Source: a virus. From it: a DNA stretch of 64,000 nucleotides. This document shows, piece after piece, positions 9,434 to 58,665 of this stretch. A program made the translations under genes and the position numbers. The notes beneath the pieces were generated by a model, which made no database searches, was not told the origin of the DNA, and saw nothing but the letters and a program-made list of their open reading frames with translations. Within the stretch, counting starts at the first letter, position 1, and every line of letters starts with the position of its first letter. The stretch is taken from positions 1-64,000 of the IMG/VR virus record IMGVR_UViG_3300045988_177154. One strand, given 5' to 3'.

Positions 9434-9877
9434 TTAAAAACCTTTTACAATATCTTGTTGTTTTTCTGATAAAGCAAAGTAATTAGCATTTAGCCATTCT
9501 TCTTGTTTTTTACTTAATGAATCTGTATTTTTAATAACCATTTCAAATAGTTCATTATAAACATCTTTTCCATAACTGAAATAAATAGCATTTTTAATTT
9601 CATTTTCATAAATGCTCAACACTTCTGAATGAGCCCCATAAACACATTCATAAAATTTGCCATCTTCACTGAGCCATCCACATAAACCTTCATTTTCCAC
9701 AAATGGGCGTGTGTCTGAATAATCCCAATCTTCGATTTCATCATTGTCAGGTTTCAAAAAGAAACCACCAACTTTATTTACATATAAAGTTTTATGTGTT
9801 CGCAATTCATCTTCCATTTTAGGCAATTTGCTTAACATTCGTTCCAACAAATCAATGTTATTAGCAAGACGAATCAT
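9434..9877 (-). CDS. hypothetical protein, now separated from its upstream promoter by the IS607 element
   Basis: ORF track 9434..10006. Codons upstream of MIRLANN (9877) are read-through into the IS left end, so the start is placed at 9877. The SD is weak. Confidence 0.6.
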   Translation of the reverse strand: MIRLANNIDLLERMLSKLPKMEDELRTHKTLYVNKVGGFFLKPDNDEIEDWDYSDTRPFVENEGLCGWLSEDGKFYECVYGAHSEVLSIYENEIKNAIYFSYGKDVYNELFEMVIKNTDSLSKKQEEWLNANYFALSEKQQDIVKGF

Positions 9878-9879
9878 TA

Positions 9880-9894
9880 AATTTTTCTTGTGAA
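9880..9894 (+). repeat. 15-bp direct repeat at the left boundary of the IS607 element
   Basis: AATTTTTCTTGTGAA is identical to 12076-12090. Confidence 0.8.
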
Positions 9895-9943: not shown

Positions 9944-10573
9944 ATGACTATATATAAAGTAGGAGAATTTGCAGAAAAAATTGGAGTTAGTATAAGTACT
10001 TTGCAAAGATGGGATAGAACTGATGTGTTAAAATCAAAGAGAACACCCACTAATCAAAGATATTACACTGACGAAGATTTGAATAAAGTTCTGAACTTAG
10101 AAGCTGAAACAAAAACTAAGCGAAAAAACGTTGGATATTGTAGAGTATCAACACAAGGGCAAAAACATAATTTAGAAAATCAAAAAGAATTTGTTTCAGT
10201 ATATAGTTTAAGTCACGGAGTAATATTAGATGAAATTTATACAGATATTGGAAGTGGCTTGAATTACAAAAGAAAAAATTGGAGTATATTATTAAAACTT
10301 GTTGAAAATAACGAAATAGATAAAATATATGTTACTTACAAAGATAGATTTGTTCGTTTTGGCTATGAATGGTTTGAAGAGTTTTGTGCTTCACATGGAA
10401 CTGAAATAATCGTTTTGAATCAAAAGCAAACAAGCCCCGAAGAAGAATTAACTGAAGATTTATTATCTATACTCCATGTTTTTAGTGAAAGAAATAATGA
10501 TTTGAAAAAATATAAAACAGAAATCAATAAGGAATTGAAAGAAATCAATGAGAAGAAAGAAGAAAGAGACTGA
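9944..10573 (+). CDS. tnpA: IS607-family serine recombinase TnpA (MerR-like HTH + resolvase catalytic domain)
   Basis: N-terminal YKVGEFAEKIGVSISTLQRWDR HTH. Catalytic-serine motif VGYCRVSTQGQ. Overlaps tnpB by 26 nt. Confidence 0.85.
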   Translation: MTIYKVGEFAEKIGVSISTLQRWDRTDVLKSKRTPTNQRYYTDEDLNKVLNLEAETKTKRKNVGYCRVSTQGQKHNLENQKEFVSVYSLSHGVILDEIYTDIGSGLNYKRKNWSILLKLVENNEIDKIYVTYKDRFVRFGYEWFEEFCASHGTEIIVLNQKQTSPEEELTEDLLSILHVFSERNNDLKKYKTEINKELKEINEKKEERD

Positions 10574-11807
10574 AAATCCAATTCCAACTATAACAAGAGC
10601 TCATAAAATTAGAATATATCCCAACAAACATAATCAAGAAGTTTTTCAAAAATATTATGACTATCAACGTTCAATATGGAATAGAGCAATAGATGAAAGA
10701 AATGCTCAATATAAAATCTATAAAGAAATGAAAGCTACTGGATTATATACTCAAAAAGAATTGAATAAGAATTATTTTCCACATACCAACAATTTAAGAA
10801 AAATGGAAAAATTTGATTGGGAAAATAATTTCCATTGTAGAGTAAGAGAGATTCAATTTGATAATTTATGCCAAGCTTGGGATAATTTCTTTAATCCAAA
10901 CATGCCTAATCACAAAAAGCCTAAATACAAGAAGAAAAAAGATGTTGAAACTCATAAGAAACTTGCTTTAAGAAGAGTGAGAACAAAAGGCAAATGGCTT
11001 TTCTTGCCAAAATCTCTAAAATCAAAACCTGAATATAGATTTACTAGAATCAAAATGGCGCAAGAATTAAGATTTGATGGACGAGTAGTAGATGATTTTT
11101 CTGTTTCTGTTGAAAATAATAAATGGTATGTAACTATAACTGTTGAAACACAACTTGAAGAAAAAATTGCAATATCTAATCATTCTACTGGTATTGATGT
11201 AAATGTTGGTTCTATTGACTACTTAAAGAAAGACGGTACAAATAAAGAATATGATAAATTTTATTTATTACCGAAATCATTGCTTAGACAATATGATAAA
11301 ATTAAATTTTATTCAAGAGTAATTTCTAAGAAACGGAATAAAAATCCTTATTATAAGTATAGTAAAAGTTATAAAGAAACGATAACCAAGCTTAATAATG
11401 CTTATACTAAAGCTTATAATATTCAAGAAGCAAATTTAAACAATATGGTTAAATATTTCTTTGATAATTACAATAGGATTGTTATTGAGGATTTAGATGT
11501 TAATTCTATGAAAATGAATAAAAGATTATGTAAATCATTACATAGAAATGCTTTTGGTCGTTTTAAACGAAAGATGGTTAACAAAGCTGAAGAATATAAT
11601 GTAGAGTTCATATTGGCAGATAGATATTTCCCAAGCACTCAAACTTGTTCAGAGTGTGGTCATATTAAGACTGGTGATGAAAAATTATTCCTATGGGGAG
11701 ATAAATATGGTAATGACCACAATACTTATGTTTGTTATAATTGTGGAACAATTCAAGATAGAACTGAAAATGCCATCTTAAATCTCGTTAATTATGGAAA
11801 ACGCTAA
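10548..11807 (+). CDS. tnpB: TnpB RNA-guided endonuclease (intact RuvC and zinc ribbon)
   Basis: RuvC-I GIDVNVG, RuvC-II IVIEDLDV, Zn ribbon CSECG...CYNCG, RuvC-III DRTENAILNL. Confidence 0.85.
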   Translation: MRRKKKETENPIPTITRAHKIRIYPNKHNQEVFQKYYDYQRSIWNRAIDERNAQYKIYKEMKATGLYTQKELNKNYFPHTNNLRKMEKFDWENNFHCRVREIQFDNLCQAWDNFFNPNMPNHKKPKYKKKKDVETHKKLALRRVRTKGKWLFLPKSLKSKPEYRFTRIKMAQELRFDGRVVDDFSVSVENNKWYVTITVETQLEEKIAISNHSTGIDVNVGSIDYLKKDGTNKEYDKFYLLPKSLLRQYDKIKFYSRVISKKRNKNPYYKYSKSYKETITKLNNAYTKAYNIQEANLNNMVKYFFDNYNRIVIEDLDVNSMKMNKRLCKSLHRNAFGRFKRKMVNKAEEYNVEFILADRYFPSTQTCSECGHIKTGDEKLFLWGDKYGNDHNTYVCYNCGTIQDRTENAILNLVNYGKR

Positions 11808-12075
11808 TTAAAAGTTAGTAATTTATATTACTATTGAGCGAAGTGTAGGTGGCACTTGCTCGTTAAATAAGAATGGGTGAACAATCAACCTCTGTGACTT
11901 GAGTTATTGCTTTCTTAGGAGAGAATAATTTTTGTTGGAATGTTGGTGACAGAATACGCACCCGAAGAAAGTGTATATAATAAAAGTTTCTTATATAGTG
12001 AAGCATAAATTAGAATATTTAATTATGTTTCAACACACTTTCTACACCTGAATTAAATCAATGTACCAAAGATAG
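11780..12075 (+). ncRNA. candidate omega (re)RNA of the IS607 TnpB
   Basis: About 270 bp of ORF-free, locally GC-richer sequence lies between the tnpB stop and the right-end repeat, where TnpB guide RNAs are encoded. Boundaries are not determined. Confidence 0.4.
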
Positions 12076-12152
12076 AATTTTTCTTGTGAAGTATATTCTT
12101 CCTTGAATTGAAGTTCCTTGTACCAATTTCCGTTAATTTTAACATAAGTCAT
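12042..12152 (-). CDS. small ORF (36 aa) whose 3' end reads into the IS607 right end; probably an insertion-truncated phage gene
   Basis: MTYVKINGNWYKELQFKEEYTSQEKF... sits behind the promoter at 12188-12216. The frame crosses the 15-bp repeat into IS sequence. Confidence 0.4.
   Translation of the reverse strand: MTYVKINGNWYKELQFKEEYTSQEKFYLWYIDLIQV
12076..12090 (+). repeat. 15-bp direct repeat at the right boundary of the IS607 element
   Basis: AATTTTTCTTGTGAA is identical to 9880-9894. Confidence 0.8.
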
Positions 12153-14754: not shown

Positions 14755-14783
14755 TTGACAAACTAGATTTCTTGTTGTATAAT
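14755..14783 (+). promoter_or_regulatory. sigma-A-type promoter TTGACA-17-TATAAT with conserved leader
   Basis: TTGACA at 14755-14760 and TATAAT at 14778-14783, followed by ATAACTATAAAGAAATGAAAAAGAGG. Confidence 0.85.
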
Positions 14784-53092: not shown

Positions 53093-53890
53093 TCAATAGT
53101 GTTCTTCTTCAAAATCTGTGTAATTTAAGATTTGTTCTGCAGTTTCTTTAATTAAATCATTTAGAGAAGTTTCATCAATGCTATATCTTCTAGCTACTAA
53201 GTAAACATTAAATTCTTCATTAGGTTCAAAATCTCTATCATCAAAACTTTCTTCTGCTTCTGGTGTTACAATATGAGCGTCCAAACCATTATTATCTAAG
53301 GAAAGATTACACTTGACTGCATTGCTTAAAATTTTCTTATAAGCCATTAAATCAAAAGTAGAATAATCAAGGGTGTTGAACTTTAATAAATATAGAACTT
53401 CTTCATAATCGTGGTTGTCATAATTACATTTAAAAGATACTATGGAATCTTTGTAATTGTTGTTATATTGGCTTTTTACTCTGGTATATATTAAATTCTC
53501 GCCTAAATCTTCTAAGTATTTATAAATTGGAATAATTCTGTTTTGAAACTCAATCCATTTTTCAAGTTCATTAAGCATTGTAGAACCTGAAGTTGAAATC
53601 TCTACTGGCGAAAAATCTTCACAATAATAAATCAATGTTAACTTATTGATTGTATAATCACTTTCGATTTTAAGTTTGTGTTTGAAATGAAAATTATCAA
53701 TCTTATTTTGCAAGTCTTGAACTTTGCTTATAATAAATTCTTTGTTTAAATTGTTAGCGCTATTACTTTCTTCTTCCTCTCGTATTCGATTCTCAAAATA
53801 AGCTTTGCTCTCTTCAAGTTTTGTTATTTCTTTTTTCAGAGCTTCAATTTCTTTGTTCTTTTTCTCTACAATTTCATATAAGTTTTCCAT
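53093..53890 (-). CDS. hypothetical protein with N-terminal coiled coil
   Basis: 265-aa ORF with a heptad-like N-terminus, KNKEIEALKKEITKLEESKAYFENRIREEEE. Confidence 0.75.
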   Translation of the reverse strand: MENLYEIVEKKNKEIEALKKEITKLEESKAYFENRIREEEESNSANNLNKEFIISKVQDLQNKIDNFHFKHKLKIESDYTINKLTLIYYCEDFSPVEISTSGSTMLNELEKWIEFQNRIIPIYKYLEDLGENLIYTRVKSQYNNNYKDSIVSFKCNYDNHDYEEVLYLLKFNTLDYSTFDLMAYKKILSNAVKCNLSLDNNGLDAHIVTPEAEESFDDRDFEPNEEFNVYLVARRYSIDETSLNDLIKETAEQILNYTDFEEEHY

Positions 53891-53893
53891 TGC

Positions 53894-54430
53894 TTAATTC
53901 TCCTTACGAGCCATATCTTTTAAAACAAACTCTAAAATTGTTTCATCTTCTGGCACATGGTCGAAATTCCAATTAAGACCGTCAAGTAATCTGGTTCTTT
54001 TCCAAGCATAGACCCAATCTTCCATTCGTGATTGAATATATTTATTAGTCCAACTTGTTTCAAAATATTCTGCATCATCACCAATTTCTTTTTCTAAGTA
54101 TATAGGATTGCCTTCTAATTGCATAATTTCATTTAAGAAAGGCCCCTCGTGGTCATTCTTGTTTAATGAATCTTCATTTAGGATATTTTCTATTTCTTTC
54201 ATGGTGGTTTCTTGTAAGATATAGATTGGTAAATAAGTTTCTATTGGATAACCATTCTCAGTTTTAGCTTCTTCTAGTTCTTCGCTAGACAACCAATCAT
54301 CATCATTACAAAACTCAAAAAACAATTTATTATCTTTTGTTGTAATAATATTAAGTATTGAGCCTTCCATTCCAGCAATACCACCTAATAGATATAGACA
54401 GGTTCTGTTTTTTATTTCACTAAATTTCAT
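53894..54430 (-). CDS. hypothetical protein
   Basis: 178-aa ORF, 3 nt from its neighbour. Confidence 0.75.
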   Translation of the reverse strand: MKFSEIKNRTCLYLLGGIAGMEGSILNIITTKDNKLFFEFCNDDDWLSSEELEEAKTENGYPIETYLPIYILQETTMKEIENILNEDSLNKNDHEGPFLNEIMQLEGNPIYLEKEIGDDAEYFETSWTNKYIQSRMEDWVYAWKRTRLLDGLNWNFDHVPEDETILEFVLKDMARKEN

Positions 54431-54438
54431 TTATAACC

Positions 54439-54867
54439 TCAATCTTTTGTTTTTAATCTTTTTAAAGTAGAATATAGAGAGCTTAATTTATGATAACTGT
54501 CATGTGTAAGTGTTTCATTCTCTGCAACAGTATTTATATTCCCTCTAATCCAATCAGCAACAGTATCACAATCTTTCAACAATTTACTTTGCTCAGCTTT
54601 AGTCAAAAGATGATTGTTTCTTTTTAGAATAATCAAAGCATGATTCACTTCAAAAGTAGAAAAACCCACCTCAAAAACCTTGAATAATCCATGCTCGAGA
54701 GCAAGTTCTATAATCTCTTTATTGAACTCATATTCAAATTGATTTACAAGATTGTAGGGTTTCTTACTTAAATAAGATAATTTATTTAATTTGTTTGTGC
54801 AGTCATTCAGAGTTATAGAATGAGGCTCTGCAATCAAAGAATGAAGAAACAGTCTATTAGTATCCAT
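54439..54867 (-). CDS. hypothetical protein
   Basis: 142-aa ORF behind the promoter at 54902-54930. Confidence 0.75.
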   Translation of the reverse strand: MDTNRLFLHSLIAEPHSITLNDCTNKLNKLSYLSKKPYNLVNQFEYEFNKEIIELALEHGLFKVFEVGFSTFEVNHALIILKRNNHLLTKAEQSKLLKDCDTVADWIRGNINTVAENETLTHDSYHKLSSLYSTLKRLKTKD

Positions 54868-54901
54868 TTTTTTATTTTACCTTTCAGTTTTCATTTGTAC
54901 T

Positions 54902-54930
54902 ATTATATAACATTTTTTAATTTTTATCAA
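54902..54930 (-). promoter_or_regulatory. sigma-A-type promoter TTGATA-17-TATAAT
   Basis: Plus strand reads ATTATA (54902-54907) and TATCAA (54925-54930). Confidence 0.75.
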
Positions 54931-54946
54931 TTAAAAATTTTTATGA

Positions 54947-54975
54947 TTGAAAAATTAACATTTTTGTTATATAAT
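54947..54975 (+). promoter_or_regulatory. sigma-A-type promoter TTGAAA-17-TATAAT upstream of the tnpA remnant/TnpB-like unit
   Basis: TTGAAA at 54947-54952 and TATAAT at 54970-54975, followed by ATAACTATA as in phage early promoters. Confidence 0.75.
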
Positions 54976-55025
54976 ATAACTATATTTATGAATATGAAAT
55001 AGAGGTTAGAAATGAAATTAGAAGC

Positions 55026-55202
55026 TTTATAACTACTAACAAAGAAAGATTAGTGGGATTTGGTTTTAAATATATAGAAGCTATATGTAATCCTCATAAT
55101 GTAGAAATAGTTGTAATACAATCAGAACAAGATAATAAATCAGTTGAACAAGAATTAACAGAAGATATTAAGAACTTATTAGCAACATTAGAAAAGGAGT
55201 AG
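55026..55202 (+). pseudogene. IS607 serine recombinase remnant (C-terminal ~58 codons only, no start codon)
   Basis: FITTNKERLVGFGFKYIEAICNPHNVEIVVIQSEQDNKSVEQELTEDIKNLLATLEKE aligns with residues ~130-190 of TnpA at 9944..10573. The HTH and catalytic Ser are absent. Confidence 0.75.
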
Positions 55203-55212
55203 TTATCAAATA

Positions 55213-56565
55213 ATGAGTAATGTATTTACGGTAACAACTGAATTAAAATTGAATAAAGAATATAATCAGTTGGTTGGTAAATACATTTCTGATTATATTG
55301 AAATATTCAATAAAATTCAGAGATTAACATTTCATAGAATTAAAAATTACTATATAAAAAATGGTAAAATAACTCAAAAAGATAGAAATATTATTCATGC
55401 TCAACTAAAAGAAGAATTTAATCTAACTAGTCGAGCTATTGATGCAATATTAAGTAATATGTTAGGTCGTTTTGAATCTATCAAAGAATTAAAGGAATTT
55501 GAAAGAAAAAGTTTAGAAAGAAAGATTTTTGCTCTTGAAAAAGAACTAACTAAATTAAAAGATGAAAGAACTTTACAAAGAATAAATTTAAATAACAATT
55601 TAAAAGATTTCAACTTTGTTAAATACAAAAATCTAAAAATAAAAATCTACTGGAAACAAAACAGATTAAATACTAAAAAGCAAAAACTTAAAAATCTTGA
55701 AAATGAAATTGAAACGAGTAAATATAAAGTATGTTTTGGCACTAAGAATTTACTACAAAAAGATTATAGCAAATTTATTAAGAAAAGAGATAGTGAAATC
55801 TATTTCTTAGGTAGAGCTGGCGATAAAGCTTGCAACTTCAATTTCCAAGTGGAATATAACTCTAAAACAAATCAATTCTATTTTAGAATTAGAAAAGAAA
55901 TTGACTTAGATAATGACAAATTCGTTTATGGCCAATTTCATTTTAATAATAAAAATTATACTAATTTATTAAAGAAGTTACTAAAAACCAAAGAAAGTGC
56001 TTTAACATATAGAATTAAGATAAAAAATAATCGAGTATTTCTCCAAATCATATACAACTTTGAGCATAACAAAGATTTATGTGTAACTAGAGATAGTTAT
56101 GGTGTAATTGGAGTAGATTTTAACAAAGGCTTTGTATCTGTAAGTGAAACAGATAAATACGGTAATTTAATAAACACTTTTAATATAGATTATCAATATA
56201 GTAAAGGTAATCAAACAACAAATGATTTTCAATATATAGCAACTAAATTAAAAGATTATTGCTTAAGAACTGGAAAAGATTTAGTTATAGAGAAACTTGA
56301 CTTTACTAAAAAGAAAGATAATTTAATAAGTAAGAAAGGTAAAAAATATAATGAAATGTTATCAACACTTGCTTATTCTAAATTTGATTCTATTATAACT
56401 TCTAAATGTGCTAAAAACAGAATTTTTTTACATAAAGTTAATCCGGCATGGACGAGTTGGATTGCGAAACGAAAATATTGTCTGAAAATGAAATTAAACA
56501 TACACTCTGGAGCTTCTTATGTTATTGCTCGTAGAGGTATGTTCTTAAAAGATAAAGTAAAATAA
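55213..56565 (+). CDS. TnpB-like protein lacking the zinc ribbon, with His at the RuvC-III Asp position
   Basis: RuvC-I GVDFNKG, RuvC-II LVIEKLDF, then VNPAWTSWIAKRKYCLKMKLNIHSGASYVIARRG. No CxxC pairs. The canonical D-x-NAA is replaced by H-S-GAS. Confidence 0.7.
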   Translation: MSNVFTVTTELKLNKEYNQLVGKYISDYIEIFNKIQRLTFHRIKNYYIKNGKITQKDRNIIHAQLKEEFNLTSRAIDAILSNMLGRFESIKELKEFERKSLERKIFALEKELTKLKDERTLQRINLNNNLKDFNFVKYKNLKIKIYWKQNRLNTKKQKLKNLENEIETSKYKVCFGTKNLLQKDYSKFIKKRDSEIYFLGRAGDKACNFNFQVEYNSKTNQFYFRIRKEIDLDNDKFVYGQFHFNNKNYTNLLKKLLKTKESALTYRIKIKNNRVFLQIIYNFEHNKDLCVTRDSYGVIGVDFNKGFVSVSETDKYGNLINTFNIDYQYSKGNQTTNDFQYIATKLKDYCLRTGKDLVIEKLDFTKKKDNLISKKGKKYNEMLSTLAYSKFDSIITSKCAKNRIFLHKVNPAWTSWIAKRKYCLKMKLNIHSGASYVIARRGMFLKDKVK

Positions 56566-56760
56566 CATAGTATTTCTACTTAACCAGAATAAGACCAAGT
56601 GATTGATGTCTGGCTCTGTGTAGAAATTCAAAAATAAAATAACTTTTCATTATCTTTGAAGTTGTAATTCCTACGTGGTGAAACTAAAAAGAAAATGAAA
56701 TTAAAATGTTCATCTGAATTAAGATGAAATAGTCATTGTGGTCACGGACGAAAAACAATC
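56566..56760 (+). ncRNA. candidate guide/scaffold RNA region downstream of the TnpB-like gene
   Basis: ORF-free. Nested helices ATTTCTAC (56572-56579) / GTAGAAAT (56620-56627) and CCAGA (56584-56588) / TCTGG (56609-56613). Hairpin TTCATCT/AGATGAA (56709-56728). Confidence 0.4.
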
Positions 56761-57036
56761 TTGAATTATGGAATATACACTATTCTATATTTCTTGTACC
56801 ACATTCCACAAGAATTTCAAATAAAATACCCGTTAGAATTAGTCTTTAAATACCCTAATCTTGTTTCTTCTTTGAGTGACTCACAAATCTCTAATATTCC
56901 AAGCGCTAATCATTTACTTATGATTGGCTACAAAATCAAAGATTGGAATTATGACTATTTTGATGCTAGAGAAATTATGAGAGCAAGAGAAATATTTAAA
57001 AATGGCACCTATCAAGTAATTGAACATAAAAAGTGA
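56761..57036 (+). CDS. hypothetical ORF with doubtful start (TTG); possibly the 3' part of a gene disrupted by the IS-derived element
   Basis: No in-frame ATG until codon ~55 and no clear SD. The frame is open from 56731. Confidence 0.4.
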   Translation: MNYGIYTILYFLYHIPQEFQIKYPLELVFKYPNLVSSLSDSQISNIPSANHLLMIGYKIKDWNYDYFDAREIMRAREIFKNGTYQVIEHKK

Positions 57037-57069
57037 TAAGTCCTTTAGTTTTTACTTGTTAGATTGATG

Positions 57070-57180
57070 AAATAAACAATTCTAAGCTGCTTTACTGCAA
57101 ATCCGATACATTGCAGTTTCTCAGTTATAGCGTTTTATTAGTGACGATATAACGACATTCAAATTCAGTCTAAGCAATTC
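57070..57180 (+). repeat. intergenic repeat family A, copy A7
   Basis: AAATAAACAATTCTAAGCTGCTTTACTGCAAATCCGATACATTGCAGT...TTAGTGACGATATAACGACATTCAAATTCAGTCTAAGC. Confidence 0.85.
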
Positions 57181-57235
57181 TAAAAATCAACATTTCAAAC
57201 AGTTGAAACTATTTTTATTTTTTATATTTTTATTG

Positions 57236-57264
57236 TTGACAAATTATAAACTTTGTTGTATTAT
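57236..57264 (+). promoter_or_regulatory. sigma-A-type promoter TTGACA-17-TATTAT
   Basis: TTGACA at 57236-57241 and TATTAT at 57259-57264. Confidence 0.8.
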
Positions 57265-57313
57265 ATAAATATAGAAAAGGAAATTAACAACAAAAGAAAT
57301 GGAGTTTTTTACT

Positions 57314-57490
57314 ATGACGAAAGAAGCTATTAAGAAAAATATTGCAACTCTTGCTAAATCACAAGGATTCTATGGGCGACTTCTTAATCAAATTGAAGAA
57401 GATGAAGCTGTCCTTGATTACCTTCATGAGAAATCAATTCAAGAAGGCTGGAAAGATGCTGTAGATATGGTTCTAGCTATTGAATGCTAA
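57314..57490 (+). CDS. hypothetical small protein
   Basis: ORF track 57299..57490. ATG 57314 (MTKEAIKKN) is preferred because a GGAG lies 9 nt upstream. Confidence 0.7.
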   Translation: MTKEAIKKNIATLAKSQGFYGRLLNQIEEDEAVLDYLHEKSIQEGWKDAVDMVLAIEC

Positions 57491-58392: not shown

Positions 58393-58665
58393 GTGGAAAG
58401 AAAAGGATATGAAATGCTCAAAGGAATTTTTGAGCTAGATAAAGATTGGAATTTATATTCCCAAGAAGAACAAAAAGAAATTGTAGCTAAAAAAGCAAAA
58501 GTTTTGCTTCACCTAGTAGAAACAAATCCCCGATTAGAAGAAGCTCTAATCGGACACTTAAAACAAGAATATATTGCTTCAGTCGAAAAGAAAGCCAAAG
58601 AATATATTCTTGGAGGATTCCCTACTCTATCAAAGATGAATAACAAATCTCAAAAAGAAAAATAA
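58393..58665 (+). CDS. hypothetical protein
   Basis: The GTG start lies 6 nt after an AAGGAG and abuts the previous stop. Confidence 0.7.
   Translation: MERKGYEMLKGIFELDKDWNLYSQEEQKEIVAKKAKVLLHLVETNPRLEEALIGHLKQEYIASVEKKAKEYILGGFPTLSKMNNKSQKEK

Follow-up and report, generated by a model that had tools for sequence, protein, structure and literature searches.

Homing through cleavage of the empty insertion site is an established role of transposon-borne TnpB. The tnpB gene considered here lies in a 64,000-nucleotide stretch of viral DNA (positions 1 to 64,000 of the IMG/VR record IMGVR_UViG_3300045988_177154, hereafter the window), where it follows a remnant of the serine-recombinase gene tnpA in what reads as a 5'-truncated and immobilised copy of an IS607-family element, one of a family of copies that colonises AT-rich jumbo phages. 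In the canonical TnpB-omega RNA systems of ISDra2 and other IS605/IS607 elements (Karvelis 2021; Meers 2023), the RNA scaffold occupies the right end, the guide is taken from the flank and a target-adjacent motif (TAM) stands by the left end, so that the empty site reconstitutes TAM plus target. All of this has a counterpart here, with the differences that our scaffold lies wholly downstream of the open reading frame (ORF) instead of overlapping it and has its own promoter in some copies, that the triad of TnpB is D-E-H with no zinc finger, and that the element is known from sequence alone. The defining features of the IS607 family (IS607, IS1535) were set out by Chen et al. 2018 (PMC6188088); the present element shares with it a tnpA for a serine recombinase with an N-terminal helix-turn-helix (HTH), followed by tnpB, as well as repeated end motifs and the lack of terminal inverted repeats and target duplication. 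It departs from IS607 in its His-type TnpB and in a target or crossover motif that is (TG)AC rather than GG (terminus and target may plausibly share 2 bp), and from the window copy the left end and the functional portion of tnpA are missing as well.

The His type itself has been described. Altae-Tran et al. 2023 (PNAS, PMC10691335) defined a major TnpB clade, RIIIr-4, in which a conserved His takes the place of the RuvC-III Asp and the C4 zinc finger is missing, which is partly found with a serine-recombinase TnpA and which belongs to the branches "specifically represented in viruses"; from its conservation those authors inferred that activity is retained and that the clade is probably active. 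The window protein agrees with RIIIr-4 in the His, the missing zinc finger, the association with a serine-recombinase TnpA and the occurrence in viruses, and differs in that its copy is 5'-truncated and that its subfamily, from AT-rich jumbo phages and from metagenome-assembled genomes (MAGs) of Bacillota, is only remotely similar in sequence to the RIIIr-4 member from Nocardiopsis. TldR proteins, finally, are defined by deterioration of the active site relative to sister TnpBs, by new gene associations and by guides that match promoters (Wiegand et al., bioRxiv 10.1101/2023.11.30.569447). With them and with Cas12m the window protein has in common a TnpB ancestry, a non-canonical RuvC site, a lifestyle that can be phage-borne and a retained 3' guide RNA. 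Set against these systems, the locus looks to us like an immobilised but functional TnpB-guide RNA unit, a reading that we hold to be likely.

The 450-amino-acid (aa) ORF contains GVDFNKG, LVIEKLDF, VNPAWTS and NIHSGASYVIARRG. The canonical RuvC triad is kept at its first two positions, D302 in RuvC-I and E360 in RuvC-II, and replaced at the third by H431; not one CxxC pair occurs in the ORF, and the C4 zinc finger otherwise found between RuvC-II and RuvC-III is therefore missing. Each of these features lies where an original prediction, made from the letters of the window and without database searches, had placed it; that prediction took them for signs of decay in a possibly nuclease-impaired protein domesticated by the phage, and suggested a search of TnpB and Cas12 profiles. 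Homology to TnpB surfaced by such profile methods and not by pairwise BLASTP, which finds no similarity between the ORF and the canonical TnpB of the window (10548-11807). TIGR01766 ("TnpB-related") reaches 35.0 bits, above its cut-off of 32, NF040570 (guided_TnpB, NCBIfam) aligns with residues 336-433 at E 5.6e-9 and 35.8 bits against a cut-off of 100, Pfam returns a weak TNB match, and hhalign of the family profile with the canonical TnpB gives 93.5% (E 2e-7), spanning RuvC-I to TS. The ORF thus appears as a distant member of NF040570, with a homology to TnpB that is remote but real. Against the sequences of the PDB, phmmer with the ORF found nothing and a profile of the family found UnCas12m4a alone (E 8.8e-4). 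PHROGs holds no family for the ORF, and the INPHARED phages gave neither a DNA match nor a tblastn match to the locus, so that no isolated phage in that collection carries a close relative.

A search of 1.84 billion representative proteins retrieved 1,511 clusters at E<=1e-3 (881 at E<=1e-10), most of them 430-530 aa long and aligning with the window protein from end to end; the family is represented in MAGs of Bacilli, Enterococcus, Carnobacterium and Erysipelotrichaceae. Across 40 aligned members with identities down to 24%, D302 and N304 (RuvC-I), E360 (RuvC-II), H431 and A434 do not vary, H431 being one of nine invariant positions. The motif N-x-H-x-[AGS]-A is kept in 108 of the 114 full-length representatives, and none of the 114 has two CxxC within the last 150 residues. 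Since the change of Asp to His and the missing zinc finger are invariant throughout the family, complete and evidently mobile IS607 elements of sibling phages included, neither can be ascribed to decay of the window copy, and the words "decayed" and "nuclease-impaired" of the original prediction lose their ground. The survey of 59 orthologues by Nety et al. 2023 included one from RIIIr-4, no. 39, of Nocardiopsis dassonvillei, which processed its RNA, and hhalign aligns our 40-member profile with the printed part of that orthologue at 99.2% (E 1.5e-19, 246 columns). Judged by this match, by the invariant His and by the absence of the zinc finger, the 450-aa protein belongs to the RIIIr-4 clade, with a D-E-H site; the statement that no phage example had been described was accordingly too strong, the enrichment of RIIIr-4 in viruses being already in the literature.

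A model of the protein built with AF2 on the family alignment (pLDDT 91.9, pTM 0.76) points to the WED/REC/RuvC fold of the TnpB/Cas12 superfamily. Foldseek against the PDB gives as best matches AsCas12f (E 1.7e-9), CnCas12f1, CasX, Cas12g, Cas12m2, CasLambda and the mimivirus Fanzor2, the matches to AsCas12f, Cas12g, Cas12m, CasX and Fanzor2 having a probability of 1.0; the best matches in BFVD are uncharacterised Myoviridae proteins and giant-virus "transposases". H431 starts the last helix (430-442), downstream of the strand 406-409 that carries VNPAWTS, which would be the place of RuvC-III in an RNase H fold. The structural check put forward in the original prediction yields the Cas12-like fold; by the alignment, His431 takes the third position and the triad is not the canonical D-E-D.

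It is here that the domestication proposed in the original prediction has to be weighed, namely that the protein is a nuclease-dead, RNA-guided DNA binder of the TldR or Cas12m kind that silences host or competitor DNA on behalf of the phage. An immobile copy with a phage promoter in front of it and signs of purifying selection would fit such a role, as would a non-canonical triad, given that a His in the RuvC triad of Cas12m2 can abolish cleavage of double-stranded DNA while tight binding is kept; Cas12m is moreover among both the structural and the sequence neighbours of the protein, and the RIIIr-4 orthologue surveyed was not reported to be active in the TAM cleavage screen. The His of Cas12m2, however, sits at RuvC-I in an HDD triad and not at RuvC-III, and the D-E-H site and the lack of the zinc finger, far from being a deterioration specific to this lineage, are the same in the transposon-borne, multi-copy siblings, which are ordinary transposons. 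Nor do the other marks of TldR appear: the guide differs from insertion to insertion and equals the local flank, that of the window being a remnant of the disrupted gene with no promoter target and no other match in the window, and no conserved new partner gene is seen beside tnpB. We regard domestication as quite improbable.

The element itself can be followed through related jumbo phages. The identical 450-aa protein is present on seven contigs of 0.2-1 Mb, close relatives on IMG/VR viral contigs of 207-315 kb and on metagenome contigs of up to 355 kb, and a phage contig often carries two to four copies; the phage group is known from metagenomes only (contigs of 207-355 kb). We surveyed about 60 loci with a TnpB at least 76% identical (numbered below with the prefix L). 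Fourteen of them (L011, L015 and 12 others) are complete, with a left end, a tnpA of 198-207 aa that includes the HTH and the catalytic Ser, tnpB and a right end; in eight the left end comes straight before tnpB with no tnpA, and about 17 have no recognisable left end. The order in a complete copy is TGAC, left end with a promoter of its own, tnpA (a serine recombinase with a MerR-type HTH), tnpB, a scaffold of about 231 nt and the flank. TnpB of the complete multi-copy elements is 88-92% identical to that of the window, and even a relative with a TnpB only 51% identical (P0122) has a full MerR-HTH/resolvase gene upstream. The arrangement of the window recurs at the same locus in L003, L004, L010/L032 and L039.

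All copies have the same right end, ...TTGTACCAC / ...TTCTTGTACCAC, beyond which more than 35 unrelated flanks are found; the boundary, a sharp drop of conservation, falls at 56802/56803 in the window. In 20 cases TGAC or a near variant precedes the left end or the empty insertion point (C in 17, A in 19, G in 14, T in 12), which is the arrangement expected of a TnpB TAM and makes TGAC a candidate for it. When the occupied sites of the window and L032 are set beside the empty ones of L030 and L031, the element proves to have inserted cleanly after TGAC, with neither terminal inverted repeats nor a target-site duplication. Left ends of full copies carry the repeats TGTAGAAT and ATTCTACA, and the right end carries ATTCTA(C/T)A, a subterminal repeat common to both ends. 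AC closes the target motif (TGAC) as well as the right end (CCAC); a 2-bp crossover by the serine recombinase, like the GG of IS607, would also be a plausible source of this identity. We rejected a "GGAG" left junction (L001, L002, L016) as an alternative end of the transposon, because these copies are differently truncated or mosaic and the sequence upstream of their ribosome-binding site (RBS) differs between sub-lineages. Intergenic arrays of a repeat of about 45 bp (TGTTCGTGAATCGGGCTACATT...GGCTAAA) lie upstream of tnpB in L001 (5750-5960), L047, L048 and L052; these four loci have a common left context and three different right flanks, which suggests rearrangement between copies of the element.

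The history of the window copy can be read against two sibling phages, L030 and L031, in which the site is uninterrupted (...GCTGATTATGAC/ATTCCACAAGAATTTC...; the empty sites read ...GATTATGAC/ATTCCACAAGA(A/G)TTTC) and lies inside a gene of 328 aa starting MKLEAY. The window and L030 are homologous from 53262 to 55027 and again from 56801 onward, the similarity to full-length tnpA begins at about 55015, and the deletion junction is placed within the microhomology 55015-55027. As these alignments show, the element inserted at TGAC/ATTCCAC... inside the 328-aa gene, after which a microhomology-mediated deletion took away codons 6-251 of this gene together with the left end and some 136 codons of tnpA; the ORF 56761-57036 is mostly the 3' remnant of the interrupted gene. 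An insertion right after the ATG of the phage gene (ATG/ATT...) was discarded in view of the 328-aa gene of L030 and the junction at 55015-55027, and the search for a third empty site by exact pattern gave a chance match only. What is left of tnpA matches the C-terminus of the window's other IS607 TnpA (9944-10573) at 43% over 49 aa (BLASTP, E 8e-12), positions 124-172 of the 187 of NF033518 (E 3.5e-11) and phrog_6620 (E 7e-10); in L011 and L015 the same position holds the full TnpA of 198-207 aa, and with its 58 C-terminal codons the stub does not amount to a functional recombinase. The original prediction was right about this C-terminal origin and about the loss of the HTH and of the catalytic Ser, less so in calling the stub start-less, as a GTG at 55053 opens an ORF of 49 aa within it. 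Having lost its left end together with the catalytic region of tnpA, the copy cannot mobilise itself, as had also been foreseen.

Because of the deletion, the promoter of the disrupted gene now lies about 240 bp upstream of tnpB. Its boxes (54947-54975) agree with 11 of the 12 consensus positions, and in L030 this promoter stands in front of the 328-aa gene in its intact form; a divergent partner, TTGATA-17-TATAAT, occupies 54930-54902 on the minus strand. The motif TATAATATAAC, in which the -10 box is always extended downstream by the same bases, is met 7 times in the 64-kb window where 0.19 are expected (at 14778, 19736(-), 26693(-), 28853(-), 33583, 34324(-) and 54970) and marks a phage promoter class. 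The claim of a phage promoter hence stands, the label "early" being an assumption; the view of it as a sign of recruitment does not, for the promoter belongs to the destroyed gene and was merely brought near.

Table 1. Features of the tnpB locus in window coordinates
Feature	Position	Strand	Basis
Sigma-70-like promoter, TTGAAA-17-TATAAT with extension TATAATATAAC	54947-54980	+	consensus scan
Start of the disrupted phage gene with its first five codons (MKLEA); now reads MKLEAL, then stop	55012-55027	+	
tnpA remnant, C-terminal ~58 codons, HTH and catalytic Ser missing	55028-55202 (stub 55026-55202)	+	BLASTP, NF033518
tnpB RBS, GGAG	55196-55199	+	
tnpB, RIIIr-4 type, 450 aa, ATG start	55213-56565	+	ORF call, profile matches
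Putative guide-RNA (omega RNA) scaffold = transposon right end, 231 nt	56572-56802	+	fold, covariation
RNA module 1, nested helices	56572-56627		
RNA module 2, long interrupted helix	56645-56700		
RNA module 3, hairpin	56709-56728		
RNA module 4, closing helix: GUGGUCAC pairs with UUGUACCAC, the last nine bases	56740 to about 56748, with 56794-56802		
Putative guide ATTCCACAAGAATTTC, first bases of the right flank	56803-56818	+	identical to the empty target of L030, TGAC before it
3' remnant (last 77 codons) of the interrupted phage gene	56803-57036	+	97% identical to the C-terminus of the intact 328-aa ORF of L030

Downstream of tnpB, the right end of the element is predicted to fold into four helical modules (minimum free energy (MFE) -46.5 kcal/mol, z -2.69). 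The helices that the original prediction had seen at 56572-56627 and 56709-56728 are both part of this fold; its end of the unit at 56760 falls short, as the structure runs 42 nt further, to 56802. The region is conserved in all close copies, and nhmmer still recovers it over its whole length in copies with a TnpB of only 56-78% identity. When 40 dereplicated sequences were compared with slid-partner and shuffled controls, 94% of cells pair (41-52% in the slid controls), 17 pairs have changed on both sides (8-11 slid, 6.2 shuffled, 0/500), and the covariation score of 0.103 compares with 0.052 or less in the controls. We take this as moderate covariation support and not more, since the sequences are mostly 85-95% identical and the fold was derived from one of them. 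The fold proposed by RNAalifold for the 40 sequences, which pairs GGUG at 56676 with the 3' end, was set aside for the MFE fold of the window on account of double compensatory changes of L075 in the helix 56740-56747/56794-56802. Among the families of Rfam none reaches its gathering score over the 231 nt, nor anywhere in the 64-kb window, RF03065 (IS605-orfB-I) staying at 17.5 bits against a gathering score of 94.2.

In three full copies, L011 (3860-3944), L014 and L015 (3875-3951), an insert of about 85 nt with a phage-type promoter, TTGA(A/C)T-17-TATAATATAACTATAA, sits exactly between the stop codon of tnpB and the first base of the scaffold, a position that marks the 5' end of the RNA. L012 (4059-4160) has an insert of about 100 nt within the right end, with an outward-facing promoter and the start of a short ORF; all these inserts would be promoter cassettes moving within the element. 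In most of the remaining copies, as in the window, the scaffold begins 7 nt past the stop codon and would then be released from the mRNA by cutting, a step demonstrated for other TnpBs. The conserved, structured 231 nt and the sharp boundary between scaffold and flank are what make this a putative guide RNA, and for the guide we adopted a length of about 16 nt from other TnpBs. Guides differ at each copy and equal the local insertion flank. The only perfect match of the window guide within the window is its own site, and the search in related phages that the original prediction had called for did find its TGAC-flanked target, uninterrupted, in L030 and L031.

From transcription onward we infer that the unit works as follows. 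tnpB and the downstream RNA would be transcribed together, TnpB would bind the scaffold, probably trimming it out of its own mRNA, and the guide of about 16 nt at the 3' end, derived from the flank, would steer the complex to the uninterrupted site next to TGAC. When sibling phages infect the same cell, cleavage of the empty site would favour repair from the occupied allele, with homing or exclusion as the outcome. The window copy would thus no longer transpose and still be held under purifying selection.

If the locus were instead an inert relic, a fragment of a dying transposon with no function whose ORF remains open through recent truncation or through overwriting by gene conversion, the loss of the left end and tnpA, the destruction of the phage gene and the many differently truncated copies in related phages would be just what one expects, and a mosaic of recombination between the window and L004, centred on tnpB, would suit it as well. 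Yet the ORF is intact in all copies at this locus (window, L003, L004, L010/L032, L039), so that the simple decay by frameshift or stop against which the original prediction had set its reading is not seen. Between the window and L010/L039, which share the truncation junction, tnpB is about 93% identical, in step with the flanking genes, and dN is 0.029 for a dS of 0.34, hence a dN/dS of 0.085; against mobile copies the ratio is about 0.10 (overall range 0.085-0.11). Such low values argue for continued purifying selection on the immobilised gene, and it is this signal that disfavours the relic. The RNA scaffold is also conserved with compensatory changes, and promoter and stub (54950-55250) are more conserved than either the flanks or tnpB (about 93%) between the window and L010, the stub being identical at 175 of 177 nt. 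An inert relic therefore seems to us rather unlikely.

Several points nevertheless weigh against an immobilised unit that has stayed functional. The signal of purifying selection could in part be due to gene conversion by mobile copies that reside in the same genome. Over the compared 53894-57490, the window and L004 are about 100% identical from 54934 to 56672, 5-25% diverged leftward of it and different at about 9% of positions over the 3' half of the RNA, and a tnpB nearly identical amid diverged flanks indicates recombination at the locus (we did not adopt this gradient as a co-conversion tract of homing, given the diverged 3' half of the RNA). The closeness of the sequences and the derivation of the fold from a single one, already mentioned, limit the covariation. 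H431 is placed in the active site by alignment and by its position in the secondary structure. Finally, the one rearranged nuclease that Nety et al. 2023 name as active in the TAM screen is an RII-r5 enzyme and not RIIIr-4, and in the published literature cleavage of double-stranded DNA has been demonstrated for no His-type TnpB.

It is tempting to go one step beyond a functional unit and to suppose that selection keeps the cassette as an RNA-guided weapon of homing or exclusion between co-infecting jumbo phages, a possibility that we put forward tentatively. The guide would then be aimed at the TGAC-adjacent, uninterrupted allele that L030 and L031 still carry, and cutting would either convert the empty allele to the cassette form or eliminate the competitor. 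Were this true, a D-E-H TnpB would be an RNA-programmed counterpart, independent of any transposase, to the free-standing homing endonucleases known from T-even phages.

The other TnpB genes of these phages deserve a few words. The zinc-finger TnpB of the window (10548-11807, with its tnpA at 9944-10573), which served the original prediction as its intact comparator, carries Thr at the position of the catalytic RuvC-III Asp361 of ISDra2 TnpB (QDRTENAILNL versus HDRDENAALNI). DRTEN is kept in all of about 100 close jumbo-phage clusters, and relatives 42-60% identical keep (D/E)RD(E/K/D)N. By this comparison the canonical Asp was lost in one lineage within an otherwise complete IS607, and this protein would be a better candidate for an altered nuclease than the 450-aa TnpB. 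That element is inserted at 9893/9894 (TTCTTGTGA/ATTAAATC), a site uninterrupted in L001, and at 9866-9890 the window holds AGAC/GAATCATTAAATTTTTCTTG, an exact unoccupied match to the right flank, that is the putative guide, of the His-type copies L001 and L093, with AGAC as a TGAC-like motif in front. L004 has a third TnpB-like gene (10780-12114, 444 aa; PF27142 Aq_aa04 and a weak TNB match) with VLEHLDF and NADLNASYNI, no obvious CxxC and no similarity to the 450-aa ORF by BLASTP; it lies between the homologues of window 58393-58665 and of the next gene and is absent from the window. The 64-kb window contains no tRNA genes and its GC content is 24-32%.

Once placed among its relatives the locus is ordinary, a broken copy of a transposon whose TnpB clade was catalogued in 2023. 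Its interest may lie rather in the jumbo phages that carry the element, which form a natural test bed with a 231-nt scaffold, a candidate TAM in TGAC, natural guides by the dozen, pairs of occupied and empty sites, and copies that are complete, without tnpA or truncated. If the D-E-H enzyme cuts, it would represent a compact, zinc-free nuclease chemistry and give direct evidence for TnpB homing among phages; if it only binds, a very large clade of "transposon" proteins would need a new explanation.

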